The translations under genes and the position numbers were made by a program. The notes beneath the pieces are model-generated. The model was not told the DNA's origin. It saw nothing but the letters and a program-made list of their open reading frames with translations, and searched no databases. 64,000 bases of DNA from Aquificaceae bacterium (GTDB lineage Bacteria > Aquificota > Aquificia > Aquificales > Aquificaceae), in NCBI GenBank assembly GCA_037925075.1, contig JAXSNR010000002.1, positions 1-64,000 on the forward strand, read 5' to 3'. Positions 1-61,382 of this stretch are shown in pieces; position 1 is the first letter of the stretch, and every line of letters begins with the position of its first letter.

Positions 1-81
1 AAATCTCGGCATTACTTCGGCAAAAAGAAGAACTTCCTCAGGAAAACATTGAGAATTAAGGTTTCTGCACAATAGAAATCA

Positions 82-126
82 TGCATCGCAAGCAGGAGGT
101 CGGGGGTTCAACTCCCCTCGTCTCCA
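82..126 (+). pseudogene. 3' fragment of tRNA-Ala(CGC); probable att-site duplicate of an upstream integrative element
   Basis: TGC-ATCGCAA-GCAGG anticodon arm (CGC), T-arm GGGGG-TTCAACT-CCCC, ending TCGTCTCCA. The 5' acceptor strand and D-arm are absent upstream. Confidence 0.8.
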
Positions 127-130
127 TAAT

Positions 131-664
131 CTACAAAGCCACATAAAAATTTCCCTGTCGGGCGATCCTTCCCTGTATTTCAAAGTCTGAAAGCCTGAGC
201 ATAAGCTGGGAGGGTTCAAGGTTTGTAAGCAAAAGGAGCTCATCAAAGCTTTTGGGGGTGGAAAGGAGGTCAAGAAGTGGATCTTTTTGAGCATTTGCCT
301 CTGGAATGCTCTCAAAGAGGTCAAGGGGACTGTGTATGACCTTGGCTTTTCCACTGTTTATGAGGCTTACACAGCCAAGCCATCTTTCGCTTGCGGAGTT
401 TCCCACGTAAACCCAAAGGGGCTTTTTTTGCCTTATTGCGTACTCCGCGGTTATAAGCGCTCCGCTCTTCTGCCCAGCTTCTGCAATTACCACCGCCTTG
501 GATATGCCACTTATCAACCGGTTTCTTCTTGGAAAGCTAAATTCCTCTGGGCTTGCATCGGGCAAGAACTCCGACACAAAAACCATGCTTTCACTCCTTA
601 GCCTCTGAAGATATTGGGGCATCCTCAAAAGACCCATGCCAAGAAAGCAAACACTAAAACCACC
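131..664 (-). pseudogene. dprA: dprA (Smf) 3' fragment, interrupted by transposon
   Basis: Motifs SEF..., FPRRNRLISG, EAGQKSGALITA and a C-terminal wHTH. Joins the 12921-13405 fragment in frame (ELGG|FSVCFLGMG) after removing one CCACC. Confidence 0.93.
660..664. repeat. 5-bp target site duplication CCACC, first copy
   Basis: Identical CCACC at 12921-12925, flanking the TGT...ACA termini. Confidence 0.95.
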
Positions 665-820
665 TGTAATTTACACTATAAAATGCAAAAATCTATAAAT
701 ACAGCATTTCCTTAAGTCTTTGATATATAAGCAGTTTCTTAAAGTTAACCTTACATCTTTTAATGCAACTATTAACATGATTAAATGTTATAATACTGCA
801 TATAACACTATAAAATGCAA
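665..820 (+). repeat. tnsA-proximal transposon end with spaced TnsB-binding-like sites
   Basis: TTACACTATAAAATGCAA 671-688, TTACATCTTTTAATGCAA 751-768, degenerate TAACATGATTAAATGTTA 773-790, TAACACTATAAAATGCAA 803-820. Confidence 0.85.
713..725 (-). promoter_or_regulatory. IHF-consensus-like site between first and second TnsB sites
   Basis: Minus strand TATCAA-AGAC-TTA matches WATCAANNNNTTR. Confidence 0.45.
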
Positions 821-837
821 TTATAAGTAAAAAAATA

Positions 838-866
838 TTGACACTGCAGATATGTCTGGTTATAAT
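838..866 (+). promoter_or_regulatory. Consensus sigma70 promoter for the tnsABC-tniQ operon
   Basis: TTGACA (838-843), 17-bp spacer, TATAAT (861-866); ATG at 877. Confidence 0.85.
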
Positions 867-876
867 TATTCATAGG

Positions 877-1476
877 ATGATCAGGAAAATTGGGATAAAG
901 AGCAGGGGTATAAGAGCGAGGTTTTACAGTGCCAAAATGAAACGTATTGTGTGGTGTGAAAGCGAGCTTGAAATGAACTTCTGTCTAAGCCTTGAATTTG
1001 ATAGAGAAGTAGAAAGCTATAGAGAACAACCAGAAAGATTTGAACTAATAAATTATGTTCCAGACTTCCTCGTAGAATACAGAGGAGCTAAAAAAGTGTT
1101 TTATGAGGTGAAACCAAACAAGCTTCTATGCAATCCCCACATATTAAAAAGGCTTGAGGAAGCAGAAAAGATAATTACTTCAAAAGGTTATGAATTCAGA
1201 ATATGGACAGATAAAGCTTTAAGCGATACAAGACTTACAAATTACAAATTCCTATATCGTTTTCAAAAAAAACCTAATAGGTATAAAGATATTTCAGTCA
1301 AAGTTTTAAATCTAATACGAAATGACATAGATACCCTTAATGAAATAATCAAAGAGTTTCCTAAAGAAGAAGCACCGCATGTTATACCAGTAGTTTGGCA
1401 CATGGTATTTGCTGGTATGTTAATTGCCGATCTTGAAAAACCACTTACTAATGGTTCAAAGCTATGCTTAGGCTAA
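877..1476 (+). CDS. tnsA: TnsA endonuclease
   Basis: CESELE, YREQP, YVPDFLV and FYEVKP motifs. Start placed at ATG 877 because the ORF-track TTG 838 is the -35 box. Confidence 0.9.
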   Translation: MIRKIGIKSRGIRARFYSAKMKRIVWCESELEMNFCLSLEFDREVESYREQPERFELINYVPDFLVEYRGAKKVFYEVKPNKLLCNPHILKRLEEAEKIITSKGYEFRIWTDKALSDTRLTNYKFLYRFQKKPNRYKDISVKVLNLIRNDIDTLNEIIKEFPKEEAPHVIPVVWHMVFAGMLIADLEKPLTNGSKLCLG

Positions 1477-3311
1477 AACCAGATAACATAATAAAATATA
1501 ATGGCAAGCAGTGGATTATAGATGGTTACTCAGATGGTAAGATTATTGTAAGATCGGTTGATGATAGAAATAAAGTCCTACTTTTAAGTATAGAGGAAAT
1601 ATGGTCAAGTGATACGAAAGATAAAGAAATAGAAAATATAAATGATCCTTTAACATCAGAACAAAAAGACATCGCTATTAAGAGATATAAACTTATAGAA
1701 CAACTACTACACAAAGAGACAACAACCGAGGAAGTTAAACAGGTGGCTAAAAATGCAGGGGTTCACCCTGTGACTATATATAGATGGATAAAACGATACA
1801 ATACCTATGGTTTAGCGGGTCTTGCAGACTATTCAAACAAAAGAGGCAATAGAAAACTAAGGTTACTACCAGAACAAGAAGAAATCATTGAAAATATGAT
1901 AAGCCTTTATTATCTAACTCCACAAAAACTTTCTATAAAAGCGGTATATGAAAAAATAGTTCATGAATGTAAAAAGAAGCACATAGACATACCACATTAC
2001 AACACAATAAGGAATAGAATAAAATTTATGGATAAGAAGATTGTATCAAGGGATAGATATGGCAAAGAGATTACAGCAGTAAGAGGACAGTTTGAAGCTA
2101 AATATCCCCTTGAAATAGTGCAGATAGACCATACCAAGCTTGACATAATCGTTGTTGACCCTATATTCAGAAAACCTATAGGAAGACCGTACATAACCGT
2201 TGCTATTGATGTTTATAGTAGAATGATATACGGCATACACATATCTCTTGATGCACCATCTTATTTCAGTGTTTCAAGAGCAATCCTTATGGGCATAAGA
2301 CCCAAAACACAATACCTTGAAAGTCTCGGAATAGAAGGTGAATGGCCTGTTTTTGGATTATCTAAGCATATGGTTATACACACAGATAATGCAAAAGAAT
2401 TCACAAGTGACTCGCTCGAGTATGCCTTAATAAGTCTAAACATATCACAAGAATTTAGACCAAAGAAAAAACCGAATTACGGAGGCCATGTGGAAAGGTT
2501 CTTAAGAACTCTTAATGAAGAACTTCACAAACTCCCTGGCACCACTTTTTCAAAACCTGATGAGAGAAAGAACTATGATCCAGAAAAAGAAGCAGTTTTT
2601 ACTCTTGAAGAGTTAGAAAAGTATATAGTTGAATGGATAGTTAATGTTTATCACAAAAAACATCACAAGGGTATAAACATGTCACCTGAAGAAAAATGGA
2701 TAGAAGGTATATATGGAAACAATAAAAAACCAGGGGTAGGCTATCCAGACTTACCAGAAAGAGAAGAACTTGCAAAACTTGAAATAGAACTCATGTATAC
2801 AGAAAAGAGAGCAATAACAAGAGAAGGTATAAAAATAGATTATATAACTTACTGGCATGAAATACTAATACCCTATATAAACTCTGCAAAGAATAAAAAA
2901 TACACAATCAAAGTAAATCCCCTTGATATAAGCCAAGTATACTTCTACGATGAAAAAACAAAGCAATATTACAAAATCCCTGCAAAGAACTTTGCTTTCC
3001 CCAAAATGAGTAGATGGGAACTTAAAGAAGTCATAAAATATCTTAGAGAAAATAACGAGAAGAAAATAGATGAATTCAGTATAGCAACCGCATACGAAAA
3101 ACTCATGTCTATTAAAAGCGAAGCAGTTCTTAAATCCAAAAAGGCAAGAAGAGATCTAACAAGAATATATGAACGAACAAGGAAAGAAGGTTATCTAAAA
3201 ACTATTCATAAAGCCTTAAAATCTGATGTAAACAGAGAAAACGAAAAATATGAAAAGAATAGTAACGATGTTAAAATTGACATAAAAAAGATGCCAATGG
3301 AATATATGTAA
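1464..3311 (+). CDS. tnsB: TnsB/TniA-like DDE transposase
   Basis: HTH (VHPVTIYRWIKRY), DDE motifs QIDHT, HTDNAKEF and GHVERF, Mu-type C-terminal region. Confidence 0.93.
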   Translation: MLRLKPDNIIKYNGKQWIIDGYSDGKIIVRSVDDRNKVLLLSIEEIWSSDTKDKEIENINDPLTSEQKDIAIKRYKLIEQLLHKETTTEEVKQVAKNAGVHPVTIYRWIKRYNTYGLAGLADYSNKRGNRKLRLLPEQEEIIENMISLYYLTPQKLSIKAVYEKIVHECKKKHIDIPHYNTIRNRIKFMDKKIVSRDRYGKEITAVRGQFEAKYPLEIVQIDHTKLDIIVVDPIFRKPIGRPYITVAIDVYSRMIYGIHISLDAPSYFSVSRAILMGIRPKTQYLESLGIEGEWPVFGLSKHMVIHTDNAKEFTSDSLEYALISLNISQEFRPKKKPNYGGHVERFLRTLNEELHKLPGTTFSKPDERKNYDPEKEAVFTLEELEKYIVEWIVNVYHKKHHKGINMSPEEKWIEGIYGNNKKPGVGYPDLPEREELAKLEIELMYTEKRAITREGIKIDYITYWHEILIPYINSAKNKKYTIKVNPLDISQVYFYDEKTKQYYKIPAKNFAFPKMSRWELKEVIKYLRENNEKKIDEFSIATAYEKLMSIKSEAVLKSKKARRDLTRIYERTRKEGYLKTIHKALKSDVNRENEKYEKNSNDVKIDIKKMPMEYM

Positions 3312-3323
3312 AGGAGATTTGCC

Positions 3324-4184
3324 ATGGATAGAGATGTGCTTTGTGAAATGCCAATAGAGGATAGAATTAGACATATTCAAAGAGACTGGTTTGTTTTATA
3401 CCCAAGAGCAAAAATTATTCTGGACAAACTATCTGTCTTACTTGAATACCCTGATAATGTAAGACCGCCATCCTTTATGATAATAGGAGACCCGAATAAC
3501 GGCAAGACCTCTATAGCTAATTACTTCCTTAAGAAGCATACACCATACGAAGAACCAGATGGAATAAAAATACCTGTTATTATGGTGGAAGCACCAGCGA
3601 AACCGAGGTTTGAATTACTTCTTGGTGACCTGCTTCTCAAAATGGGTGTCCCTTTTAGACATTCGGAGTCTGAGGGTGCTAAACTGGAAAAACTCTTCTA
3701 TTATATGAAGGAGCTTGAAGTAAAACTTATTATCGTGGATGAAATACATAACGTACTTTCTGGAACTGTCCTTAAGCAGAGAGAGTTCATGAACAGTTTA
3801 AAAAGAGTCGTCAACGAAAGCAAGAGACCGTTAGTTCTTATAGGGACTAAAGATGCACTCCATGCTGCAAGCACGGATTATCAAATACAATCAAGGTTTA
3901 GGCCTGAATTTTTACCTCTTTGGAAGTTTGATAGTGAGTTTCTTTCTCTACTCTATACTATTCAGGAAAGTCTTCCACTCAAAAATAAAAGTAATCTCTT
4001 AGAAGAAAAACTTGCAAGAACTTTATATGATTATTCGGAAGGTATTCTTGGAGAGCTTGTAAGCCTTATCAAAGATCTTGCCATATCTGCTATTCAAAGC
4101 GGAAAAGAAAAAATAGATTTACGACTTATCAAGGAAATAAACTGGGTTCCGCCTTCTAAAAGAAGAGAAATACCTATTTTATAA
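3324..4184 (+). CDS. tnsC: TnsC/TniB AAA+ ATPase
   Basis: Walker A GDPNNGKT, Walker B LIIVDEIHN, QIQSRF; SD AAGGAG upstream. Confidence 0.92.
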   Translation: MDRDVLCEMPIEDRIRHIQRDWFVLYPRAKIILDKLSVLLEYPDNVRPPSFMIIGDPNNGKTSIANYFLKKHTPYEEPDGIKIPVIMVEAPAKPRFELLLGDLLLKMGVPFRHSESEGAKLEKLFYYMKELEVKLIIVDEIHNVLSGTVLKQREFMNSLKRVVNESKRPLVLIGTKDALHAASTDYQIQSRFRPEFLPLWKFDSEFLSLLYTIQESLPLKNKSNLLEEKLARTLYDYSEGILGELVSLIKDLAISAIQSGKEKIDLRLIKEINWVPPSKRREIPIL

Positions 4185-4195
4185 GAGTTTTTAAG

Positions 4196-5671
4196 ATGGA
4201 GAGAACAGTAAGATACGCAAAAGGACCAGCACGCTATGTAAGTGGATATATTGGAGAACTATACAGATCTCCAAACTACAGGCTTCCTGTTAAGTATGAA
4301 CCTTTTGAAGGTGAACTATTTTCCTCATTTATATCAAGGGTAGCATTAAAGTATGACATATCCGCAAGACACTTTATTAGTCTGATTCTAGGTGATAGAA
4401 AGTTTCTGCAGATTGGGTATAGAGATCCAGACCTTTATATTAAGGACGAGCTACTTAAAATTATTGCATTCAAAACAAGGAATGAGCTTGAACAACTATA
4501 CGATACAACACTCAAAAGCTATCAAGGTATACTTTTTGAAAGCGTTGAGGAAAGTGGGAGAACAATAAATACAATTCCATACATAGACAGATTCAAAAAC
4601 GAAGGGGGAGTTCCTCAAAAGTATGGAGTAAAAATATGCCCCTTATGTCTTAAGGAAGAAAAAGAACCATACTTTAAAAAGTTATGGAGGATTTCTTTTT
4701 ACAATGCCTGCCATATACATGGAATAGTTTTGCTTGATAAATGTCCTAAATGTGGAGCTCCAATAAGAATAATACCCACATTCAGTCAAGAATTTGCTTC
4801 GTGTTTTAAATGTGGGTTTAGCTTCAAAAATGTTTCTGAATATACAAGAGCAAGCAATGAACATACTAACGCTATAAGAGGCCTCTTAAAAGTCATTGAG
4901 GACGGTTACTTCCAAACTGCAGATGGAGATAAGGTAAATTCTTTAGCCTTTTTCATAGCTTTCAGGTTCATGGCAAGATGGGTTGCGAAGGTAATGAGAA
5001 CAAAAGATAGAAAATGCTCAGAAATAAATTTAGCAGTAGAATATCTATCACTTGAGGATAAGTTAACTATATACACGACTGCTTGGGAAGCATTTAAGGA
5101 ATTTCCTTATAGCTTTAGAAGGTTTATATTAGAAAGTGGTCTAACAATAAGAAAGATGGCAAGCATTTACTACAAGAATATAAAAGTAGACAGAAAAGGT
5201 GAAAGGTTTTTCAAACATCTTCCTTATTTTCTAGCTAAGGAGCTTGAGCGTATGGTTCCACCTTATGATGCACAGGTATATACAAAGGAAGGGCTTAAAA
5301 GCATGGTCTTTTGCCTCTTAGATAAAGGATACCCACCATCCACTGGCTTTCTCACGAAGTTCAATCAGACTATATTTGACAAAGGTAAAGAACTATTGGA
5401 AATATTTATTGAATACTATACGCCCGAACTTCCCAAGGATATGGAGGAATTCTTTAGGGAGAAGGAAACCGCAAGTGCAGATGAGGTTCTCAGATACTTT
5501 AAACATATAAAACCTGTTGATGTTATTAGGGTAATGAATTATATGCTAAAGATTGGTAAGCTAAAAATACTCCAAGGGTCAGAATATATTGCAAAGGACA
5601 GACTATCAATAAAAAGACTAAGTGGACCAGTTACACGTCAAAATATGGCAAAGATAGTATTAGGGATCTAA
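4196..5671 (+). CDS. tniQ: TniQ/TnsD-like target selector with long C-terminal extension
   Basis: PFEGELFSSFISRVA TniQ N-terminus; Zn motifs CPLC, CHIH, CPKC and CFKC; 491 aa, i.e. TnsD-sized. Confidence 0.88.
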   Translation: MERTVRYAKGPARYVSGYIGELYRSPNYRLPVKYEPFEGELFSSFISRVALKYDISARHFISLILGDRKFLQIGYRDPDLYIKDELLKIIAFKTRNELEQLYDTTLKSYQGILFESVEESGRTINTIPYIDRFKNEGGVPQKYGVKICPLCLKEEKEPYFKKLWRISFYNACHIHGIVLLDKCPKCGAPIRIIPTFSQEFASCFKCGFSFKNVSEYTRASNEHTNAIRGLLKVIEDGYFQTADGDKVNSLAFFIAFRFMARWVAKVMRTKDRKCSEINLAVEYLSLEDKLTIYTTAWEAFKEFPYSFRRFILESGLTIRKMASIYYKNIKVDRKGERFFKHLPYFLAKELERMVPPYDAQVYTKEGLKSMVFCLLDKGYPPSTGFLTKFNQTIFDKGKELLEIFIEYYTPELPKDMEEFFREKETASADEVLRYFKHIKPVDVIRVMNYMLKIGKLKILQGSEYIAKDRLSIKRLSGPVTRQNMAKIVLGI

Positions 5672-5746
5672 ACTTGCCACGTAGGTTCATAAGTTGCAAG
5701 CCTGCAGTTTTTTACAAAAGATACAGAAAGATTTATCTGAACTTAC

Positions 5747-8701
5747 TCACTGTCTTTCTCTCAACAACTTAATAGTATTTTCCAACCTACTCTTATCAAT
5801 GTGTCTATCTATTAAGTTTAAAAGTTCTTTCCAATCTTCTATTTTAGAAAGCTCCTTTAAGGCAGCATTGTTATCTTTGATGGGTAAAGATTTCATAATA
5901 TTGTGCAAATTTTCTGAAAGAGTAGCTACTTCTATATTCCAATAGTATCCAGCATAATGTAAATTCAACATATCTATAACTCTTAAAACTCTGGAATGTA
6001 TATTCCTCGCAAAATGGGTGCCTACTTTGTGTATGAGGTAATTTATAATTCCTGAATAATAGTAAGCAGTTTCTTTATTTGAAAATTCCATCCAACATAA
6101 AGTGCTATCAGCAAGATAAAGATTATCCTCAGGACATTCGAAAACTGCAGAAGAAAAAATCCTTACTACCCTATGTATAACATAAAACTTACCCTTTTTC
6201 ATAAACTCTGGTTCTGATTGTTGAACTTCCTTTCTTAACTCATTAATTTTTGCCAATTCATCTCCTGATAAATTAGCCTTATTACGCATAATAATAAGGT
6301 ATAAAAATTCTATTAGGTCCTTCTTATCCTTAGGTGAAATAATAGCAGGATATGCCTCCAGCAGTTTAAAGGGTAAAACTCTATCTGCATAAAACACTCT
6401 TTTAATGTAATTATTGAAAGATACACCCTTGCGATCGGGTATTAGCACGTTAAGATTTATATCTTGGTTCATACCTTCAAGCCTGCCAATGCCTGTATTG
6501 GGGTTATACCTAGTCAAAATCAAGCCTGCATATTTAATAGCACCTCGCTTCTTAATCCCCCCTTTGAGACCTCTAATATAAACTCCATTAACCTTGACTC
6601 TCTCTGCAAAAGCAGGCTTCTCATATCCTTCGCTCTTGGCTATTTGTCCAAGGGTTTCAACACTTTTTTCAACCTGATCTTTGCTTACCTGATTCAGTCT
6701 TATATCTTTAGATGTATAGTCCTCAGAGGTCTTATAATAACTTCCTTCAAGACTTACTTGATAAACTTCTTTACTTCCTTCACCTACTACTATGACGCCC
6801 GGTGGTATACCATGTTTAAAAACATCGTTGCTAAAAACATAAACACTAAAAGGCTTTTTCTCTAAGCACTTCCAAACCATCAAAGAACCTACTCCGTAAG
6901 TGCCAGAATAAGCAATACTTGATGGAACAATAAAAATACCTTTCACATTTGTTCCGGTTCCATACTTGCAGACAAAATATCCAGATAAGTCACCGCCTGT
7001 TAAAATACGCCCACTCAGATTGTTTCCACGAAGGAAATTCTTTATGATTATTCCATTTATACCCTTTAACCTGCTTAGATTTATCCAAGGTGGATTTGTA
7101 GCTATTGCATAATCTTGTAATCTTCCTATCATGTGCTTAGCTATACTTGATACAACAAGCAAAGCCCATATTCCATCTCCATGCCGAGCTATATCTTTCG
7201 CAATCTGTCTCTTGTTTATCATAACAGACAACTTATCAAAACCTATTTGTTCTTGAACTTCTGATAGTTTTTTAATAAGCAAATTAAGTATTTCATTTTC
7301 CCTCTCAGTAATATCTTTTATATTTAGAGTTTTCTCATCCACCATATCAAAAATCTCCTCTAAGGTGCTTTCCAATAAAGGAAGCATAGAAAACCTATTC
7401 AGATTGGATGCTAACGCCTGCACGCTATCTACATAATCTTCTTCAATACCAATTTTCTTAAGTTTTTTTATAATATCATAACTATAGAAGCTACTATCCG
7501 CATAAAAAACATAAGGAACAACATTGTTATCATAACCTCCAGCCATTCTATAGGCTATAAAGAGTCCTGCTCTTGCCAATACCACTGCAAGTGGGTTAAT
7601 GTCAAAGCCTACAACTTCCTGTATAGCATTATCTGGATCTTTCCCCGCCTTTACTTTTCTATAGAAAGCCTCTATTAAAAAAGTCCCAGTTCCACAGCAT
7701 GGGTCTATAACAAGCTTTTCTATCCAAAGAGATTGCTCAAGCCTATCCATACACCATTTAGCAAACCATGTGGGTGTATAGTATTCTCCCAACGCTCGTC
7801 TATCTTCTTCGCTTATAAGCTCTTCATACAGAAGCCTAAAAAGGTCTTTTATCCGTTCATTCTTGTAGTTAAACCTTGATACCCTACTCTCTATAGCGTT
7901 ATAAAAATCATCCAAAATCTCTATTTCCTCCCTTGTCAAAAAACCTTTCCTCTCAAGAATAATGTGCCAATTAAGAAAAGGAAGCGAATACCCTTTCTTA
8001 ATACGTTTTTGTTTTATCTCTATTTCCTCTTCTATATATTGCTCTCCTATGACGCTTAGAGCGGTTGCATTTAAAACTGTATGAAGTATATAAAGCTCCT
8101 CCGCCTTTTCTTCTCTCAACTTAGGATAAATCTTATCCAGCTCTTTTCTATATGATTTGTAAATCTCTCTTATATTTTCCTTGTGTTTCCTAAAAATTTC
8201 AAGTAGTTTATCGTAGAATAATGTCTTAACCTCTCTTAGCAAGCCAGTGAAAATTTCAAGGTTAAGATCTAACTTTTCTTCTGCTATCCTTTTTGCATAA
8301 ACTATAAAATCACTCCAATTAATATTTATCCATTGCCCATTAGAATATAATTCAAAAACAAGCTCGTCAGGACTTCTACTGAAATATCCTTCTCTGTTTT
8401 TTGCATCTTTATGATAGCAAAGTATTGCATATTTAACTTCAATTGCAAGCTTACTTTTAATATGCTCAATATAGTCCTCAAGCTGCCTTCTGCCATTCTG
8501 AGCATCTTGTCTAATTGGTTCTATTTCAACTATGAAGGAAAAATCTCTGCTGGAAATGTCAAGTCTCTTACCACCTATGGCATATTCAGTTGTGAAAGTG
8601 ATTGGAGAAACCTCTGTCCTTAGTATCTCTAACAAGTAAGCCTTTATAACATCATGTAATTGTCCCATCCGATAGATTATTATATCAGAGGGTGATGGCA
8701 T
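5747..8701 (-). CDS. Fused restriction endonuclease / N6-adenine DNA methyltransferase (Type IIG-like)
   Basis: N-terminal PD-(D/E)xK-like RLDI...IVEIE, LGEYYTP, motif I IDPCCGTGTFL, GFDINP, motif IV NPPW, long C-terminal putative TRD. Confidence 0.8.
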   Translation of the reverse strand: MPSPSDIIIYRMGQLHDVIKAYLLEILRTEVSPITFTTEYAIGGKRLDISSRDFSFIVEIEPIRQDAQNGRRQLEDYIEHIKSKLAIEVKYAILCYHKDAKNREGYFSRSPDELVFELYSNGQWININWSDFIVYAKRIAEEKLDLNLEIFTGLLREVKTLFYDKLLEIFRKHKENIREIYKSYRKELDKIYPKLREEKAEELYILHTVLNATALSVIGEQYIEEEIEIKQKRIKKGYSLPFLNWHIILERKGFLTREEIEILDDFYNAIESRVSRFNYKNERIKDLFRLLYEELISEEDRRALGEYYTPTWFAKWCMDRLEQSLWIEKLVIDPCCGTGTFLIEAFYRKVKAGKDPDNAIQEVVGFDINPLAVVLARAGLFIAYRMAGGYDNNVVPYVFYADSSFYSYDIIKKLKKIGIEEDYVDSVQALASNLNRFSMLPLLESTLEEIFDMVDEKTLNIKDITERENEILNLLIKKLSEVQEQIGFDKLSVMINKRQIAKDIARHGDGIWALLVVSSIAKHMIGRLQDYAIATNPPWINLSRLKGINGIIIKNFLRGNNLSGRILTGGDLSGYFVCKYGTGTNVKGIFIVPSSIAYSGTYGVGSLMVWKCLEKKPFSVYVFSNDVFKHGIPPGVIVVGEGSKEVYQVSLEGSYYKTSEDYTSKDIRLNQVSKDQVEKSVETLGQIAKSEGYEKPAFAERVKVNGVYIRGLKGGIKKRGAIKYAGLILTRYNPNTGIGRLEGMNQDINLNVLIPDRKGVSFNNYIKRVFYADRVLPFKLLEAYPAIISPKDKKDLIEFLYLIIMRNKANLSGDELAKINELRKEVQQSEPEFMKKGKFYVIHRVVRIFSSAVFECPEDNLYLADSTLCWMEFSNKETAYYYSGIINYLIHKVGTHFARNIHSRVLRVIDMLNLHYAGYYWNIEVATLSENLHNIMKSLPIKDNNAALKELSKIEDWKELLNLIDRHIDKSRLENTIKLLRERQ

Positions 8702-8990
8702 TTAGGAGAAATAAACTGGCGTGAAAGAGGAAATATGGGAACTGTTTCAAAATTTGTGTAAATTCTGCCATACTTCATAACATACCCACAAAAAGAATTA
8801 TTAACTGGGACTATATCCTCCTGCCATTCAACTCCTAACACCTTATAATGGCTTGAGGCATAAGGTCTTTGAGTAGCTCACTGAACTCCTTGCGGTATTG
8901 TTCTACTTTCTCCTTGCTTGGCTGTTTTATGTTAACACCTCCTTACTTTATTTTTACACAATGGATGAAACAGTCCCTAGTCCCCTCTTT

Positions 8991-9017
8991 GGTATAATAC
9001 CCATATGGGATAATACC
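8991..9017. promoter_or_regulatory. Imperfect palindrome overlapping a -10 box in the divergent RM / DUF5131 gap
   Basis: GGTATAATACCCAT-ATGGGATAATACC dyad containing TATAAT at 8993-8998. Confidence 0.5.
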
Positions 9018-9039
9018 ACATGCAGGAAAGGAGTTTAGC

Positions 9040-9795
9040 ATGGCTTATAGAAGTTACATTGAATGGACAGAGGCAACATGGAACCCCTCTACAGGTTGCA
9101 CAAAAGTATCTCCCGCTTGTAGAAATTGTTATGCAGAGAGGCTATCTCTAAGGCTACAAGAGATGGGCATAGCAAAATACAAAAATGGCTTTAAACTAAC
9201 AATCCATGAAGAGGAACTTGAAAAGCCTCTTAAGTGGAAACAGCCAAAGATAATCTTTGTGAATTCTATGTCAGACCTATTTCACGAAGACTTGCCTGAG
9301 AAGTTCATTGAAAGAGTATTCTCCGTTATGAACAAAGCCCATTGGCATGTTTTTCAGGTTTTAACCAAGAGAACAAAAAGACTTGTAAGGCTTGCAGATA
9401 AGCTATCATGGACACCTAACATATGGATAGGGGCAACAGTGGAAACACCAAGTTATTTTTTCAGGATTGAAGACCTAATGCACATAAAACATGCAAGTGT
9501 AAGGTTTTTATCCCTTGAACCTCTTTTGTCAAAAATGACAGGGATTGAAAATTATCTTAAAACAGGACTTATTAACTGGGTCATAGTTGGCGGAGAAAGC
9601 GGGCCAGGAGCAAGACCCATGAAAAAGGAGTGGGTTATTGAGATAAAAGAACTATGTAAGCAATTTAATATTCCCTTCTTTTTCAAACAGTGGGGAGGGG
9701 TTCAAAAGAAAAAGACAGGAAAAACGCTTGATGGAGTAGAATACACTGAAATGCCTTCGGTTTTAGAGTCAAAGTTATCGCATTTGCATGTGTAA
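9040..9795 (+). CDS. DUF5131 / Gp37-Gp68 family three-Cys (radical-SAM-like) protein
   Basis: IEWTEATWNP.TGCTKVSPACRNCYA (CX6CX2C), NSMSDLFH, WVIVGGESG, FFFKQWGG. Confidence 0.9.
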   Translation: MAYRSYIEWTEATWNPSTGCTKVSPACRNCYAERLSLRLQEMGIAKYKNGFKLTIHEEELEKPLKWKQPKIIFVNSMSDLFHEDLPEKFIERVFSVMNKAHWHVFQVLTKRTKRLVRLADKLSWTPNIWIGATVETPSYFFRIEDLMHIKHASVRFLSLEPLLSKMTGIENYLKTGLINWVIVGGESGPGARPMKKEWVIEIKELCKQFNIPFFFKQWGGVQKKKTGKTLDGVEYTEMPSVLESKLSHLHV

Positions 9796-11124
9796 TTAAC
9801 TCAAAAACTTAACTTTTATATTGTAAAGGTCTTTTATACCTCTAATAGATGAAGACTTCAAAGAGCCTTTCTTAGAAATATACTCATTATCAGTCTCCGT
9901 ATAATCTATCAAGTTTTCCTCTTGCATTTTATTTAAACACTTTATTATATTCTTTATAGAAAGAACTTCTTCTTCCACGTAGGATTCTACAAAACTTTTA
10001 AAGGATAAAATATTACTCCATACGTGCCTTACTATCTCATACAATGTGAACTGATTGGGTGCTTGTTTTATATCTAAATGCTTACTTCCAAATTGTTTTA
10101 CCTGTAGACATAATTTGATAAAAATTGGCTTTTGCATATTCGTAGGTTTAGAACTTAGCATAGAAGTGACAGCTTCAGCATACTTCTTAACAAAGGCTTC
10201 TGCAACTGAAACTGCTCCTGTCACCAATATTAAGCCGAAATACTCTTGCTTTATTGTTTTATCCTTAACCTGTATAGGAATTGTTGCCGTAAGAAAAAAC
10301 GAGTTAGATCTTTTAAGAGATAGGAAAAGTTCTGACATTCGGTTGCTAACTCTTTCTATCATATGTCTAGTTTCAAGTTTAGAGAACTCTTCAAATTCCT
10401 TATCGCTTAGACCCAAAAATGCTTTTATTCTCTCTTTATCAGAACCCATTTGTCTAGATTTCATTCTCCTTATATGTCCGAAATTAATGAACATTAAAAT
10501 ATCATACTTCCCAACCACGCCTTCTAGTAAATCATATATATCATTAAATGACGCTTCTAAATTAAATGGGTCTATAAAAATTAATCCAAATTCTGATCTC
10601 CCAATCAGATCTTTGATGATGTCTTTCTCTTTTCCCCATTCACGGTATATATTGAACTTTATGCCTTTACGCACGCTTTCCTCGGTTTTATTGTGAAAAT
10701 CACTTAGAAACTTTTTGAGATTTTCTCTATAGCTTTCCTCTTTTTCACATAAAATAAGGTTTAAAGACTCAAAATAAACTCCTCCCGCCTTACCTCCTTT
10801 TGTCTCCAAGAATTCTTTAAATATTTTATAGGCATATAATGGAGTTCCATATCTATCTTCATCATTTAAAATTTCATCAGGATTAAACTCAAGCTCTTCT
10901 TCTAAAGCAAATATTCCTTGACCTGCATACAAATCAACGTAAGAATAAATCATATCCTTGATAGAATAATTCGTAGAGTTGCGTTTTTTGTTGCGATTTT
11001 TTACGATAATATTTGCCGTACCAAGAGAAACTTCAAGAACTTCTCTTAGTATTTCATGTTTAATTAGGGTTGATATCTTTTTCTTTTCCCGATTGAAAAA
11101 GTCCTTCCCGTCACTCTTAATCAT
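9796..11124 (-). CDS. tcmP: Three-Cys-motif partner protein (TcmP-like, methyltransferase fold)
   Basis: TLIKHEIL, YVDLYAGQG, LCEK, IFIDPF, YDILMF motifs; adjacent to DUF5131. Confidence 0.78.
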   Translation of the reverse strand: MIKSDGKDFFNREKKKISTLIKHEILREVLEVSLGTANIIVKNRNKKRNSTNYSIKDMIYSYVDLYAGQGIFALEEELEFNPDEILNDEDRYGTPLYAYKIFKEFLETKGGKAGGVYFESLNLILCEKEESYRENLKKFLSDFHNKTEESVRKGIKFNIYREWGKEKDIIKDLIGRSEFGLIFIDPFNLEASFNDIYDLLEGVVGKYDILMFINFGHIRRMKSRQMGSDKERIKAFLGLSDKEFEEFSKLETRHMIERVSNRMSELFLSLKRSNSFFLTATIPIQVKDKTIKQEYFGLILVTGAVSVAEAFVKKYAEAVTSMLSSKPTNMQKPIFIKLCLQVKQFGSKHLDIKQAPNQFTLYEIVRHVWSNILSFKSFVESYVEEEVLSIKNIIKCLNKMQEENLIDYTETDNEYISKKGSLKSSSIRGIKDLYNIKVKFLS

Positions 11125-11151
11125 AATCCGCTACCTCCTCAGGTATATTAA

Positions 11152-12795
11152 TCATTTTTTGCTAGCATTCCTTAGTCCCTCGTCTTTAATTATAGTTAAT
11201 AGCCTTTTACACCATGATAGCATAGCCTTGCTTGAAAATCTTGCGGGATGTCTCTTCAAATAGAAGGATAGCTTATGCCTGTTGAAGTAAGATTCTATAT
11301 CATCAATACTCACTCCACTTATATACTTCAATAGTAAGCGAATAGCTAAAATTCTATAGTTTTTTATGTTTCCCACAAGTATAAGTGTTGATGGACCTAT
11401 TTTTAGACCCTTTCTATCTATTTCAACTAATAATACATTCTTTCCATAGTATGAAAAATATGCATATATAAAACGCCTTCTAGACTTACAATCCACCTTA
11501 TAATCATAATGAGTAAGTTTAGAACATGGGCTCTTTTTTCTTTTACCTAAGGGAACTAATTCTGGTTCGCTTATATATATGTTTATGTTAAAGTTTTTTT
11601 GTAAAAAGTCCATGAGTCTTACAAAATCATTCATATCAAAATCCTTTTTACTTTTATCATCTCTTATTTTTGTTTCGGTTCTATATGCTTGTATATCTAT
11701 TGCATCTGATCTTAAGGACTTTTCCTGATTTATAGTAGCAATCATAGGCGTATCTTCACTTTTAAAAAACACATGCCTAAACTTACTATCTTTAACCTCT
11801 ATATACTCTATATCTAAGTCTATATGTGGATTTTCCCTTTGTTGTATCTCAATTCTTATGCCTGCAGATTTATATAGCTTGCCTGCAGGCATTTCTGGTA
11901 TATAGGTTTCTACAGACTCATCTACTATTGCTTGAGGAATAGCTATTGTTTTTTCCTCTTTAATTTCTCTTCCTTTAGTATGTCTTTTTCTTATTACTTT
12001 TACCTTTAAACTTTCAAGGGGATTAGGGCTAAAATTCTCTATTTCGTGTACATATAGATAATCACCTAATTTTTCATATCTTAAGGTGAAGTTAACAATA
12101 CCGTTTAAAGGTAATGTTGTGGTTATGTTTATATTTCCAAAAAGACCAAAGCCTTTAAACTTCTGAAGAGAATACTTTGCAAACTCACTTTTATAGAAAA
12201 ATGCGAGCAGAAGAGCATCCATATTAGCGTAACCAGGCTTTAGTTTTATCTCAATATAGTCCTCAGTTTCTCTTATGCTTTCGTAAGCAGATTCTATACT
12301 TCCTGAAATTATGTGTCCAACTATTCTTGATGATGTAAAAAAGAAAGTGCTTGCTATCAAGCTACATGGGAAGAGAAAATTTCCAATTTTTATTACATTT
12401 TGCTTAAGTATTTCTATATCAAAAGATTTTCTACCAGTTTTAGATATAAAGCTATAATCTACCAAGCTGGCATCTATAAGTTTCCCTAATTCAAGTCTTT
12501 CTTGCTCCTTTGGTTCTGGCACATAGAGTTCTATACTCTTTGTATTTCCATGCTTCTCCTTTACTTGAAGAACGCCTTTTTCTCCTATGTGATATTCTGT
12601 CCATGAAGGGTATAAAACATAGCCTAGTTCTGGGGGTATTTTCTCAACTACCAATAGTTTCTTATTTCCAACATCAACTTCAAACAAGGTTCTATAGTAA
12701 TATCCTCCACCCCCAGGTAATTTAACAAGGCTCATATAGTAAAGCAATCTTGCCTCCCTACTCTCGTATCTTCCAAGGCTTTTAAAAGGTATCAT
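11152..12795 (-). CDS. tnsE: TnsE-like target selector
   Basis: 547 aa. FPCSLIASTFFFTSS segment and C-terminal pattern DFVRLM...RRFIY...LLVEID...STLIL...KRHP resemble TnsE/TnsE_C. Sits at the distal end reading inward; SD AAGGAGG. Confidence 0.7.
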   Translation of the reverse strand: MIPFKSLGRYESREARLLYYMSLVKLPGGGGYYYRTLFEVDVGNKKLLVVEKIPPELGYVLYPSWTEYHIGEKGVLQVKEKHGNTKSIELYVPEPKEQERLELGKLIDASLVDYSFISKTGRKSFDIEILKQNVIKIGNFLFPCSLIASTFFFTSSRIVGHIISGSIESAYESIRETEDYIEIKLKPGYANMDALLLAFFYKSEFAKYSLQKFKGFGLFGNINITTTLPLNGIVNFTLRYEKLGDYLYVHEIENFSPNPLESLKVKVIRKRHTKGREIKEEKTIAIPQAIVDESVETYIPEMPAGKLYKSAGIRIEIQQRENPHIDLDIEYIEVKDSKFRHVFFKSEDTPMIATINQEKSLRSDAIDIQAYRTETKIRDDKSKKDFDMNDFVRLMDFLQKNFNINIYISEPELVPLGKRKKSPCSKLTHYDYKVDCKSRRRFIYAYFSYYGKNVLLVEIDRKGLKIGPSTLILVGNIKNYRILAIRLLLKYISGVSIDDIESYFNRHKLSFYLKRHPARFSSKAMLSWCKRLLTIIKDEGLRNASKK

Positions 12796-12855
12796 TTAAG
12801 CCTCCTTCCCAGTATGTTTCGGAATATCCCTCTAAGTCCCGCTTTAAGTAGTGGT

Positions 12856-12920
12856 TTGCATTTTTTAATGTTATATTTGCAATTTTTGATGTTAGTTTGC
12901 AATTTATGATGTTTGCTACA
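12856..12920 (-). repeat. Distal transposon end with three closely spaced TnsB-binding-like sites
   Basis: Minus strand reads TGTAGC-AAACATCATAAATTGCAA-AC-TAACATCAAAAATTGCAA-ATA-TAACATTAAAAAATGCAA. Confidence 0.9.
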
Positions 12921-12925
12921 CCACC
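12921..12925. repeat. 5-bp target site duplication CCACC, second copy
   Basis: Matches 660-664. Confidence 0.95.
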
Positions 12926-13405
12926 CAACTCTATGCACTCCCTATGACTGTGATAATCACAGCCAAAGGCACCACCAGAGCATACTCCGTACCCTTTCTC
13001 TACCACCACCTTTACCAATCTGCTTATGAACCACAGACTTTGCATATCTGGCCTTCTTGTGCCGACCACTCCAATCAGAGAGGTGTTTTTCAAATGTCCC
13101 GTATGAAAAAGCACCGGTGGTGGGTCCTCTATTTCCTTTAAAAGGGCAGGGTACTCGTGGTCCTCAAGGGTCATCCAGTTAAGGCCTTCCCTCTCCACCA
13201 CCTTAACAACTCTTTCTGGCTCAAAGCTAAGATCCCTCTTGAAAAAGGCATTTGTTTTCTCCTCACCTAAGATTTCCCTTAGCTCCTCACGGTTTGCGGA
13301 GAGTATGGAGCTTGCACTTCCAAACCTAAGCCAGAGCCTTCTTATGGAAACCTCACCAAGACCCCTTATAGCCTTTAACAAAAGCCAGTTATAAAGCCTT
13401 TCCAT
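12921..13405 (-). pseudogene. dprA: dprA 5' fragment; ORF reads on into the transposon end and stops at 12782
   Basis: SAM-like N-terminus, YPALLKEIEDPPPVLF, GVVGTR, SGGAFGCD; DprA similarity ends at ELGG. Confidence 0.93.
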
Positions 13406-14156
13406 CTTCTACCCAGTTTCCTATGAGACCACCAAAGCTATCAAAAAAGGCAGAAACAAGAGCCTTGTCCTCTTCAAGTTCTATACAAAGCCTTCCTTCA
13501 CATACACCCACCCTTACACCCCTTTTGAGAGCCTCTGGCATAAGGCTAAAGAGCTTTTGATTTATGACGGAAGAGACACCCCACACCTCAGAAAAGGATA
13601 CCCGTTGGGTAGTGAGCAAAAGGTCGTGCCCTTCATCCACAAGCTCGGCTCCAAGGCTCAAAAGCCTGCCCTCTATAAGCTCCTTAAGACCGCACTCGGA
13701 TAGGACTTTGACCCTTACTCCTTCTAAAGTCCTTGACCACTGAGACTTTCCACCAGTCTTTTCCAAAAGCCTTATCTCTTCTATTTGCATACTATCATCC
13801 ATGCCCTTGCACATATCATAGACAGTAAGCAAGGCCACGCTTACCGCGGTAAGAGCTTCCATCTCATAGCCAGTTCTGTTGATACCTTTTACAAAAGAAT
13901 AAACCTCCAAGTAGCTATCTCCAAGCCTTGCGTCCACTTCTACATGTTCAAGACTTACAGGATGACAAAAGGGCAAAAGCTCGGGAGTTTTCTTTGCCCC
14001 CATAATGCCTGCAAGCCTGCAGGCAGAAAGCACATCCCCCTTTGGAACTTTGCCTTCTTTTATAGCCTCTATCGTTTTAGTTTTAAGCCTGATCTTGCCG
14101 TAGGCACTGGCAGTCCTTAGAGTCTGTGGCTTTTTGCTAACATCGACGGTCTTCAT
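13389..14156 (-). CDS. moaC: Cyclic pyranopterin monophosphate synthase MoaC with C-terminal extension
   Basis: VDVSKK, KGDVL, LLPFCHP, TGYEMEAL, YDMCK, KTGGKS; start chosen at MKTVDV. Confidence 0.88.
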   Translation of the reverse strand: MKTVDVSKKPQTLRTASAYGKIRLKTKTIEAIKEGKVPKGDVLSACRLAGIMGAKKTPELLPFCHPVSLEHVEVDARLGDSYLEVYSFVKGINRTGYEMEALTAVSVALLTVYDMCKGMDDSMQIEEIRLLEKTGGKSQWSRTLEGVRVKVLSECGLKELIEGRLLSLGAELVDEGHDLLLTTQRVSFSEVWGVSSVINQKLFSLMPEALKRGVRVGVCEGRLCIELEEDKALVSAFFDSFGGLIGNWVEDGKAL

Positions 14157-14627
14157 ATTATTTTTAGTATAAGCCAGTTGGGAAATTCTATCTAAACCAA
14201 ACACCCTTTAATCAGTACAAGCACGAGCATAACAGATAGTCTCCGAAAGTAGACATGAAGCGACTAAAAAAGAGAAGCACCGCTACCTGTAAAGTGTTTT
14301 AGGGTGATACTTATGGTGGTTATCCCTCTAACCTTATAGAGATGTCAAGGGTGCCCCAGCCCGCTCAATGTCTGATGGGTTTTATCCTTTCCAAGTTTTG
14401 ATAAACCGTATTCTATTTATTCAAAGTACCTTTCCACAAGACTGGCAAAAGATTGCGTTTTTTATGGCTTTCTCTGGGCCAAGGGCGTTCACCTTTTACT
14501 TAGAGGTCTTTGCAGGCTCGCCAAAGTCCCATCTTGTTTGTGGGTGCTGTGTCATAGCTTCCAAAAAGCCATAGACAACCTTATCCTGTGTCCAAAAAGG
14601 ATTTATAATCTTCCTAAGGAGGAGCTA

Positions 14628-14957
14628 ATGTTTGAAGGTTTTGAAGAGCTTACAGATAGAGATTTTTACGAAAAGGCGATGGCTGGAGAAAAGCCGGCGG
14701 TGGTGCTTTTTACCATGCCAGACCATCCACAAAATCAGATATTCTACGAGAGGCTAGCAAAGTTTCAGCGGATATACGGAGACAAGATAAACTTTTACTG
14801 GATAGATGTGAGCAAGCATACAAGCGCGGAGGACTTTGGAATTTTTAGCTTCCCCACCGTTCTGTACTTCAGGGACACTATGGAACTGGAGAGGCACGAC
14901 TACACTCCGGAAGAAGAAGAGGTGGAAAGGGCTATAAGGAGGCTCTTGAGACTATGA
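14628..14957 (+). CDS. Thioredoxin-fold protein lacking CxxC
   Basis: FYEKAMAGEKPAVVLF...FGIFSFPTVLYF pattern; SD AAGGAGG before ATG 14628. Confidence 0.7.
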   Translation: MFEGFEELTDRDFYEKAMAGEKPAVVLFTMPDHPQNQIFYERLAKFQRIYGDKINFYWIDVSKHTSAEDFGIFSFPTVLYFRDTMELERHDYTPEEEEVERAIRRLLRL

Positions 14958-15457
14958 AACTACTCTGGGCTCCTTGGAGAAGCCAATATGTGGAGAAGGT
15001 AGACGAGCAAGAGGGTTGCTTTTTGTGTCAAGCGGTTTCCCAGCCAGAGGAAAAACTTAGAGATTATTTAGTTTTGCATCGTGGCAAGAGAGCCTTTGTT
15101 ATATTCAACAAGTTCCCATACAACCCCGGGCATCTGATGGTGGCACCCATAGAGCATGTGGGAGACTATACGCTCATTGATGAAGACACCGCCCTTGAAA
15201 TACACAAACTGGCAAGGGTTTGCATACGGCTTATAAGAGAAGTCATGAAGTCCCACGGTATAAACTTAGGCTACAATCTTGGCAGGGCTGCTGGAGCCGG
15301 GCTTGAAAGCCACATACATCTTCATCTTGTGCCAAGATGGTTTGGGGACACTAACTTTATGCAGACCCTTGCGGATACCAAGGTTATATCCCAAGACCTG
15401 TATGAGCTTTATGACAGAATGAAGCCAGTGTTCAAAAGGCTACTCAATGCTTATTGA
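14954..15457 (+). CDS. HIT family hydrolase (Ap4A phosphorylase-like)
   Basis: LWAPWR, CFLC, NKFPYNPGHLMV, HIHLHLVPRW. Confidence 0.88.
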   Translation: MKLLWAPWRSQYVEKVDEQEGCFLCQAVSQPEEKLRDYLVLHRGKRAFVIFNKFPYNPGHLMVAPIEHVGDYTLIDEDTALEIHKLARVCIRLIREVMKSHGINLGYNLGRAAGAGLESHIHLHLVPRWFGDTNFMQTLADTKVISQDLYELYDRMKPVFKRLLNAY

Positions 15458-16193
15458 AGTAAGAGGCTTAAACCTTTACTATGGCAATAAACAGGTTCTT
15501 AAGGACATAAACTTTGACCTTGCGGAGGGTGAAGTTTTATGCATAGTGGGTGAATCTGGTTCTGGAAAAACTTCCATACTATACTCCATAATTGGGCTTC
15601 TACCTGAGAGGGCCAGACTCGAAGGCTCTATAAAGTTCAAAGGGCAGGAACTTGTTGGCATGCCAGAGGAGAAATACAGAAAGATAAGAGGAAGGCACAT
15701 CTCCATAGTCTTTCAGGAGCCCTCTGTTTATCTTGACCCACTTTTTAAGGTGGGGGTCCAAGTGGAAGAGGCTTACATAGCCCATTTTGGAAAGGTGGGT
15801 GCAAGGGAAAAAGCCCTACAAGCTCTGAAAAAGGCGGGTATAGTGGAGGTGGAGAGGGTCTACAGTAGCTACCCGCATCACCTCTCTGGTGGGCTAAAAC
15901 AAAGGGTTTGCATAGCCATAGCCACCGTATGCGACCCAGAACTGGTGCTTGCGGACGAGCCAACCACAGCCTTAGATGTCTCGGTGCAAAGCAGGATACT
16001 CAAGCTATTCAGAGATATGAAGGAGGAGGGCAGGAGCGTTATATTGGTGACCCACGATTTTGGTGTTGTGGCAGAGGTGGCAGACAGGGTTATAGTTTTG
16101 AAGGGTGGTACGATAGTAGAAGAGGGGGATGTGTGGAGCGTCTTTGATAGCCCAAAACACCCCTACACTCAAGAACTGTTAAGGGCTATTTAG
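15447..16193 (+). CDS. Dipeptide/oligopeptide ABC transporter ATP-binding protein
   Basis: GESGSGKT, YPHHLSGG, ADEPTTALD, HPYT. Confidence 0.88.
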   Translation: MLIEVRGLNLYYGNKQVLKDINFDLAEGEVLCIVGESGSGKTSILYSIIGLLPERARLEGSIKFKGQELVGMPEEKYRKIRGRHISIVFQEPSVYLDPLFKVGVQVEEAYIAHFGKVGAREKALQALKKAGIVEVERVYSSYPHHLSGGLKQRVCIAIATVCDPELVLADEPTTALDVSVQSRILKLFRDMKEEGRSVILVTHDFGVVAEVADRVIVLKGGTIVEEGDVWSVFDSPKHPYTQELLRAI

Positions 16194-61179: not shown

Positions 61180-61382
61180 TCCTCTGTTATCTCCCTGAAG
61201 GCTTTGTACTTTATGGTGTAAAGCACCACAAAGCCATCTATGCCGTGCTCCCTTGCCAAGCTTGTTTCCACATCAAGCACCTCTCCACCTTCTTGCTCCA
61301 ATGCGGAAAGGACCTCGTTAAGCTTCTCTGTTATCTCTTTATTGTCACCCTCAAGGGAGACCACCATACACCTATATGCCAT
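61176..61382 (-). CDS. Small hypothetical protein
   Basis: 68-aa ORF packed in the operon. Confidence 0.6.
   Translation of the reverse strand: MAYRCMVVSLEGDNKEITEKLNEVLSALEQEGGEVLDVETSLAREHGIDGFVVLYTIKYKAFREITEE

Follow-up and report, generated by a model that had tools for sequence, protein, structure and literature searches.

Does a Tn7-family transposon that interrupts a natural-transformation gene home to this gene, or did it land there once? The question is raised by a 64,000-nucleotide stretch of DNA (here denoted the window) from an Aquificaceae bacterium of the phylum Aquificota, comprising positions 1 to 64,000 of contig JAXSNR010000002.1 in assembly GCA_037925075.1. Within the window, a transposon of 12,256 bp located at 665-12920 lies inside dprA. 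Considering the anatomy of the element, its relatives in the phylum and its variants in metagenomes, we think it somewhat more probable than not that dprA is a dedicated attachment site of this element.

An intact Tn7-family transposon splits dprA

An earlier note on this DNA, made from the sequence alone, had described TGT...ACA ends at 665 and 12920, a CCACC duplication, two dprA halves that rejoin to 1014 nt (337 aa) and five open tns-type open reading frames (ORFs), and had read them as a recent, clean insertion of an intact Tn7-like element lacking CRISPR. Our rereading bears out this description. The TGT tip lies at 665-667 and the ACA tip at 12918-12920, and the 5-bp duplication that flanks them is perfect (Table 1). 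When the element and one CCACC copy are removed, the minus-strand segments 13405..12926 and 664..131 rejoin into a frame of 1014 nt, 337 codons, with no internal stop, and the rejoined DprA aligns without gaps to 11 of 11 same-genus orthologues at 60.5-77.4% identity. TnsA, TnsB, TnsC, TniQ and a TnsE homologue are all encoded by open frames. Pfam and NCBIfam detected no Cas family in the eight long ORFs (212-984 aa), and there is no CRISPR array among the repeats. With a perfect duplication and gene halves that rejoin without a stop, the insertion into dprA is clean and appears recent.

Arrays of TnsB-site repeats accompany both tips. The 16-nt repeat motif has five exact matches in the window, at 673 and 805 on the plus strand and at 12856, 12877 and 12897 on the minus strand, all of them no more than 160 bp from the tips and in inverted orientation. 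A sixth match, at 61204, carries 2 mismatches, and shuffled sequences are expected to give about 1.0 match each. Reading by eye added a degenerate repeat at 753-768 in the tnsA-side end. The closely packed repeats are at the tnsE end of this element, whereas in Tn7 it is the tnsA end that has the dense TnsB sites. G+C content is 0.30-0.39 within the element and 0.42-0.49 in its flanks. The tips, the TnsB-site arrays at both ends and the 5-bp duplication, together with a TnsA endonuclease and TnsB DDE transposase, a TnsC/TniB AAA+ adaptor and a TniQ-family selector, make it close to certain that the element is an intact, non-CRISPR Tn7-family transposon.

The chorismate synthase of the host clusters at 90% or more with proteins of Pampinifervens/Hydrogenobacter, in keeping with an Aquificaceae host. 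The host genome is 99.95% complete and contains a single copy of the element. No second dprA was found in it: the Pfam DprA domain is present only as halves, covering profile positions 2-98 and 101-210, and a further, sub-threshold DprA match contains stops. A Pfam scan also found no dprA copy carried by the element. As the host is left without an intact dprA, RecA loading on incoming DNA should be lost. Among the 24 other genomes of the genus, 21 have a dprA match; 20 of the 21 show an open frame of 337-374 aa, and the remaining match is a 58-aa piece of a contig in a 65%-complete genome. The dprA of another genome (G065:C1:47102-48010) has an in-frame extra segment in the Rossmann domain, with the profile match split at 138-140 and a frame of 374 aa.

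The insertion point corresponds to about position 99 of the 212 in the Pfam DprA profile and sits between SGGAxGxD and SVCFLGMG, the best-conserved motifs of the dprA Rossmann domain. The SGGAxGxD codons are 23-58 bp from the insertion and face the tnsE-side end, and the SVCFLGMG codons, at 6-30 bp, face the tnsA-side end. The frame of the N-terminal half continues for 46 codons into the element. The comM gene of the host is an open, unoccupied frame of 516 aa.

Related elements in the phylum occupy comM and a hisF/tRNA site

When 178 genomes of the phylum were searched with TniQ, six others proved to have a relative, at 30-35% identity. In Sulfurihydrogenibium sp. YO3AOP1 and S. yellowstonense (duplication GGGGA) and in Phorcysia thermohydrogeniphila (duplication GAGGG), the element interrupts comM just behind the LIGGG codons. 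TniQ identity between Sulfurihydrogenibium and Phorcysia is only 36%, and the comM codon is the same. In another genome (G024), the tnsA end of the element lies 20 bp past the hisF stop and the tnsE end 4 bp past the 3' end of a tRNA, with the duplication TTTAT; the two ends are on two contigs (L011 at ~14400 and L033 at ~9490). The relative in Persephonella marina has broken tnsA and tniQ genes, and no duplication was seen. Three elements at one comM codon and a fourth at hisF/tRNA indicate that this Tn7-like family is site-specific in Aquificota, with different sites for different members.

The comM elements resemble the dprA element in gene order and in orientation relative to the split gene. 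The N-terminal half of comM adjoins the tnsE-type end and the Walker B half adjoins the tnsA end, so that four of four in-gene insertions (dprA and three comM) share one orientation, the split gene being read from the tnsE side towards the tnsA side of the element. TnsB is 41-44% and TnsC 35-42% identical between the comM elements and the dprA element. The far-end protein is 550 aa in Phorcysia and 483 aa in YO3AOP1, compared with 547 aa here, and the YO3AOP1 element shares the end architecture of the dprA element. The TniQs differ: those of the comM elements are 393-433 aa, do not have the C-terminal extension described below, and are 26-34% identical to the TniQ of the dprA element.

The comM insertions of the relatives, taken with the present one, mean that the family hits both transformation genes, and this hints that it repeatedly homes to genes of natural transformation. 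The idea of the earlier note that the family targets natural transformation is thus strengthened, the closest relatives sharing one comM codon. As to its suggestion to look for independent elements at the same dprA codon, none of these relatives lies in dprA; those with a mapped site are in comM or at hisF/tRNA.

Two genes of the comM elements were noted in passing. In the Phorcysia element, a DruA/DUF4338 gene (L012 8252-9337, minus strand; Pfam 1.3e-63, PADLOC 3.2e-82) follows tniQ nearly stop-to-start, with a HerA/mad8-like ATPase nearby; this comM element lacks TnsF, and the DruA gene may encode a partner selector or belong to the cargo. The YO3AOP1 element has a TnpB/IS605 OrfB gene (L009 11092-12357, minus strand) between tnsC and tniQ.

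The element encodes a TniQ with a private C-terminal extension and a TnsE homologue

The genes tnsA, tnsB, tnsC and tniQ follow one another at one end of the element. The true start of tnsA is probably downstream of the TTG at 838. Compared with proteins of the PDB, TnsB is nearest to the TnsB proteins of type I-F3 CRISPR-associated transposons (CASTs; 2.3e-55 and 7.9e-50), and Tn7 TnsB matches at 5.1e-13.

The TniQ core is followed by a C-terminal extension of ~90 aa. A protein search with TniQ against 1.84 billion representatives gave 2689 hits, and the best 150 of these were examined for the extension. Relatives align only up to about residue 400, and beyond it only P0001 (95%) and P0003 (44%) match, among the best 150 of 2689. 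P0003 is encoded on the same 17,143-bp contig as a TnsE homologue, P0159 (37%). Another TnsE homologue, P0160 (43%, with its N-terminus present), is encoded on a JGI contig of 9,376 bp, which should extend ~8 kb past the tnsE-side end. Locus scans with TniQ alone found no relatives in genome contigs and none in metagenome contigs. With a TniQ alignment, the scan of genome contigs again found none and that of metagenome contigs gave two distant loci only, of which one (L014) is a fragment and the other (L015) adjoins an IS30-type transposase.

Three further proteins (P0152, P0154 and P0164) are ~95-96% identical to the TniQ and TnsB of the element. NCBI assigns them to metagenome-assembled genomes (MAGs) of DPANN archaea (Candidatus Micrarchaeia and Candidatus Anstonellales), where their contigs measure 5.8-9 kb; one MAG contig of 9,048 bp encodes P0154, P0164 and P0168. 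Since the near-identical element described here has an Aquificaceae host, these contigs look mis-binned, which matters for surveys of archaeal Tn7 elements.

The 547-aa protein that reads inward from the far end showed a weak Pfam TnsE_C match (0.0064) and nothing significant in the PDB by sequence; it was identified by fold search only. An AlphaFold2 model built from a six-row alignment reached a predicted local distance difference test score (pLDDT) of 65. In a Foldseek search with this model, the top seven PDB matches were all the TnsE C-terminal domain, with a probability of 1.00, target-normalised template modelling scores of 0.66-0.68 and E values of 2.3e-4 to 1.5e-3. By predicted fold, the protein is a TnsE homologue. 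The TnsE alignment had no match in viral contigs and the TnsE protein none in plasmids. The 16-mer of the transposon ends matched 19 loci in viral contigs, once each; as none of these loci encodes a tns protein, we regard the matches as chance and discarded them.

Metagenome variants and contig breaks at the dprA site

Parts of the element are present in 20 hot-spring metagenome runs from seven studies, and four of the 20 runs were examined as Logan contigs. In run X4, which comes from another study, a contig of depth ~4 spans the tnsA-side junction (605-1429) with 0 differences. From a related organism, the same run has a depth-81 contig in which 664 and 13318 are separated by exactly 392 letters; as 12926-13317 has this length, the contig represents an empty site. 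Run X8 contains a ~95% identical variant at a depth of ~158. Its tnsE-side contig aligns through 12925, including CCACC, and continues with 15 letters unlike the window, and a loose end at 666 equals, by eye, the intact sister-species dprA of three loci (L017, L019 and L020). This fits a sister species in which the element sits at those five bases too, making X8 a candidate second insertion. A variant in run X10 has tnsABC-tniQ and tnsE with a cargo other than that of the window; thus tnsE travels with the core.

The Pfam DprA model matches in 164 of the 178 genomes of the phylum, and only the host (G000) has the two halves separated on one contig. Nine DprA matches that are cut by a contig end were checked; the partial matches of G099, G075, G161:C96, G012:C329 and G142 do not enter this count. 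Four of these nine breaks fall within 20 nt of the position equivalent to the junction, at -1, -3, +2 and +19 nt (G071, G006, G063:C37 and G020, respectively), and the other five are at profile positions 46, 53, 65, 119 and 160.

A decayed dprA was seen in another genome, G141 (G141:C9:7289-7800, locus L051), where the DprA match (profile positions 4-100) ends in an open frame of 110 aa. By eye, the coding sequence is interrupted a few codons past this same GG position and picks up again close to the winged-helix region, ~200-250 nt being seemingly deleted. The deletion could be the scar of an earlier occupant, or chance.

Cargo genes and a nested MITE

Between tniQ and the tnsE homologue, the element carries genes for a type IIG restriction-methyltransferase-like protein, for a DUF5131 protein with matches to two PADLOC models of candidate defence genes, and for a TcmP-like partner of the latter. 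Nested in this cargo is a miniature inverted-repeat transposable element (MITE). The MITE is single-copy in the host and has many matches across the genus: 32 in G061 (92-95%), 13 in G060, 13 in G047, 8 in G048, 6 in G063 and 4 in G070. The two end pieces of the MITE match separately in some genomes, ~0.7-1.2 kb apart, and its depth is very high in all four metagenomes examined. The many matches in sister genomes and the single one in the host suggest that the transposon passed through a MITE-rich sister species.

Outside the element, window positions 1-129 are the 3' part of a transfer-messenger RNA (tmRNA) gene that is truncated where the contig begins; at 18 bits, its match to Rfam RF00023 does not reach the gathering score. 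A tRNA considered at the window start was rejected, because ARAGORN finds no tRNA in 1-16000 and the tRNA-like stretch is this 3' part of the tmRNA.

Table 1. Coordinates of dprA, the transposon and its genes in the window
Feature	Position	Strand	Remarks
dprA, C-terminal half	131..664	-	from ...G/FSVCFLGMG to stop; Pfam DNA_processg_A 119-210 and DprA_WH
Target-site duplication, tnsA-side copy	660..664		CCACC (GGTGG in dprA sense); identical to 12921-12925
tnsA-side end	665..830	+	TGT tip; dispersed TnsB-site repeats at 673-688 and 805-820
tnsA	838..1476	+	Pfam Tn7_TnsA-like_N 8.7e-10; NCBIfam TnsA-like 7.7e-21, under its cut-off
tnsB	1464..3311	+	DDE transposase, 615 aa; Pfam rve, Mu-transpos_C and helix-turn-helix domains
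tnsC	3324..4184	+	TniB-type AAA+ ATPase, 286 aa; Pfam TniB 2e-56
tniQ	4196..5671	+	491 aa; Pfam TniQ 3.8e-20; core to about residue 400
Type IIG restriction-methyltransferase-like protein	5747..8701	-	984 aa; Pfam N6_Mtase 1.5e-10; PADLOC REase_MTase_IIG 5e-27
MITE	8738..8977		~240 bp; lies within the cargo; inverted ends of 25 nt
DUF5131 protein, candidate defence gene	9040..9795	+	Pfam DUF5131 6.3e-91; PADLOC PDC-M41B 1.8e-107
TcmP-like partner of DUF5131	9796..11124	-	442 aa; NCBIfam TIGR04474 4.3e-13, 49.8 bits against a cut-off of 53
tnsE homologue	11152..12795	-	547 aa; reads inward from the far end, opposite strand to tnsABC-tniQ
tnsE-side end	12855..12920	-	three packed TnsB-site repeats, spacing 20-21 bp; ACA tip
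Target-site duplication, tnsE-side copy	12921..12925		CCACC, perfect 5 bp
dprA, N-terminal half	12921..13405	-	ends ...SGGAFGCDYHSHRECIELGG; Pfam DNA_processg_A 2-95

Comparison with known Tn7-family elements

Faure et al. 2023 (PMC10293859) describe Tn6022-like elements in which a remote TnsE homologue is encoded on the opposite strand close to the left end. TnsABC-TniQ at one end and an opposite-strand TnsE homologue at the other give the present element a Tn6022-type layout, without TnsF and with a longer TniQ, an assignment made by gene layout. According to the same source, Tn6022/AbaR-type elements share with it the order TnsA-TnsB-TnsC-TniQ, the 5-bp duplication, and insertion in a natural-transformation gene beside a conserved motif. 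The reported Tn6022 TniQ has 369 aa, compared with 491 aa here, and Tn6022 targets the Walker B region of comM, whereas here the target is dprA and the host comM is intact. No TnsF was found in the element: by Pfam and gene order, on which this negative rests, ORFs of at least 80 aa include no recombinase-type hit, and the gene after tniQ is a methyltransferase on the other strand rather than an operonic TnsF. By the scans of its long ORFs and repeats, the element has neither the cas effectors nor the CRISPR array that a CAST carries inside it.

With Tn7 the element shares two selectors (a TniQ-family protein and TnsE), the TGT/ACA tips and the 5-bp duplication. In Tn7, TnsD is reported to bind at +23 to +58, over the active-site codons of GlmS (PMC2918618). 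The mechanism proposed below is modelled on this reading of conserved glmS codons, and the SGGAxGxD codons of dprA are likewise 23-58 bp off. Tn7 inserts downstream of glmS and leaves the gene unbroken, whereas dprA is split; and tnsE, which in Tn7 is part of the tnsABCDE operon, is here at the far end on the other strand.

A precedent for homing into a gene by TniQ only is the Tn6022-related Clade VIII element of Heimdallarchaeota, in which TnsABC and TniQ without TnsF were shown to insert inside a protein-coding gene (Thesier et al. 2025, 10.1101/2025.07.27.667033). That element targets a DNA methylase gene and carries a replacement copy, in contrast to the dprA element, which brings no dprA.

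The earlier note did not know of dprA as a Tn7-family attachment site, and our literature search likewise found no paper that names it as such and none that links dprA with TniQ. The gene is absent from the main text of Faure 2023, Thesier 2025 and Benler 2021. It is not named as a Tn7-like target in the accessible text of PMC11472951, and the literature on insertion into dprA, as far as it could be seen in part, contained nothing concerning a mobile element.

Is dprA a dedicated attachment site?

By analogy to Tn7, TnsA and TnsB would excise the element, and TnsB would join it to a target marked by TnsC, leaving the 5-bp duplication. The private extension of TniQ would read a conserved stretch of codons midway through the Rossmann domain of dprA, with the tnsE-side end, its sites packed as in Tn7R, facing SGGAxGxD and the tnsA-side end facing SVCFLGMG. 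The TnsE homologue may serve a second, replication-directed route onto plasmids. Several observations argue for a dedicated site. The element did not use comM, which is intact in the host; its TniQ has an extension of its own; the insertion lies between conserved motifs; in the X8 variant the element is again followed by these five bases and then by another flank; and contig breaks gather around that position. We lean towards the target having been chosen by the element's own TniQ. To the full reading, in which dprA serves as a dedicated site for a TniQ equipped with a C-terminal DNA-binding module of its own and independent of TnsF, one Tn7 lineage of thermophilic Aquificota came to home to both ComM and DprA, and selection acted to disable transformation, we assign a probability of about 0.5. 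ComM and DprA reportedly cooperate at the recombination stage of natural transformation, as the title of a 2025 preprint has it.

Other observations weigh against this reading. Targeting of dprA is unproven, because only one insertion in it has been verified, and none of the six related elements in the 177 other genomes of the phylum lies in dprA. The C-terminal part of TniQ has no match in Pfam or the ESM Atlas, and the AlphaFold2 model of TniQ, from a 5-row alignment, is poor (pLDDT 47), so that DNA binding by the extension is a guess. Finding at least four of nine breaks at the site has a probability of ~0.002 by a hand-computed binomial (41 of 636 nt per edge), a post hoc figure drawn from related genomes, and such breaks can also be explained by strain-mixed assemblies where a variable stretch meets a conserved block. 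No TnsB was found in G063, G071, G006, G020 or G141, which says little, as these MAGs are incomplete (74-95%). Among proteins with the 46-residue read-through tail of the junction ORF, only the window's own was found. The X10 variant has 29 further flank letters that, beyond one base, do not align to the window; this flank could not be read and counts neither for nor against.

The most serious alternative is a one-off insertion through the TnsE pathway or by untargeted TnsABC, the true TniQ site being elsewhere. The earlier note had cautioned that placement through the TnsE pathway was possible, and the caution stands: the fifth ORF is open and by fold a TnsE homologue, so that a route without sequence specificity exists. 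The single verified insertion, the X10 flank unlike that of the window and the absence of TnsB from the MAGs with breaks at the site all suit such an event. It accounts poorly for an insertion placed exactly between two conserved motifs in the orientation of the three comM insertions, for the X8 variant with the same five bases and then a different flank, and for the clustered breaks; moreover, the 99.95%-complete host has no further copy and hence no other occupied site. We consider a one-off insertion possible but unlikely.

An off-target event of a comM-homing element, which hit dprA by chance resemblance, would draw on the comM homing of the nearest relatives in the phylum and on the Gly-Gly codons in which the comM and dprA sites both end. 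However, the host comM is intact and unoccupied, the TniQ has only 26-34% identity to comM-associated TniQs and an extra C-terminal module, and by eye the comM and dprA flanks have no in-register DNA similarity, which makes this explanation improbable. Finally, a chimeric join of an element contig with dprA could be imagined for a genome in 4 contigs, its DNA possibly assembled from a hot-spring metagenome sample, but the perfect duplication, the gapless rejoining of dprA and the independent X4 contig that bridges the tnsA-side junction leave next to no room for such an artefact.

Significance for natural transformation and the Tn7 family

New attachment sites of Tn7-like elements are still turning up, and the pairing of comM and dprA within one phylum is unusual, both genes serving the recombination step of natural transformation. 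If the dprA insertion is a one-off, the element is an ordinary, well-preserved Tn7-like transposon with defence cargo. If homing to dprA is true, the element would represent a compact thermophilic TnsABC and TniQ system whose TniQ recognises a coding motif unaided. The idea that mobile elements disable transformation has so far been argued mainly from AbaR/Tn6022 in Acinetobacter comM (PMC11441513, PMC11472951), and homing to dprA would add a second, independent natural test of elements disabling transformation to avoid being cured. A dedicated site in dprA would then point to selection on the transposon to disable transformation, and not just to the use of conserved, dispensable DNA.

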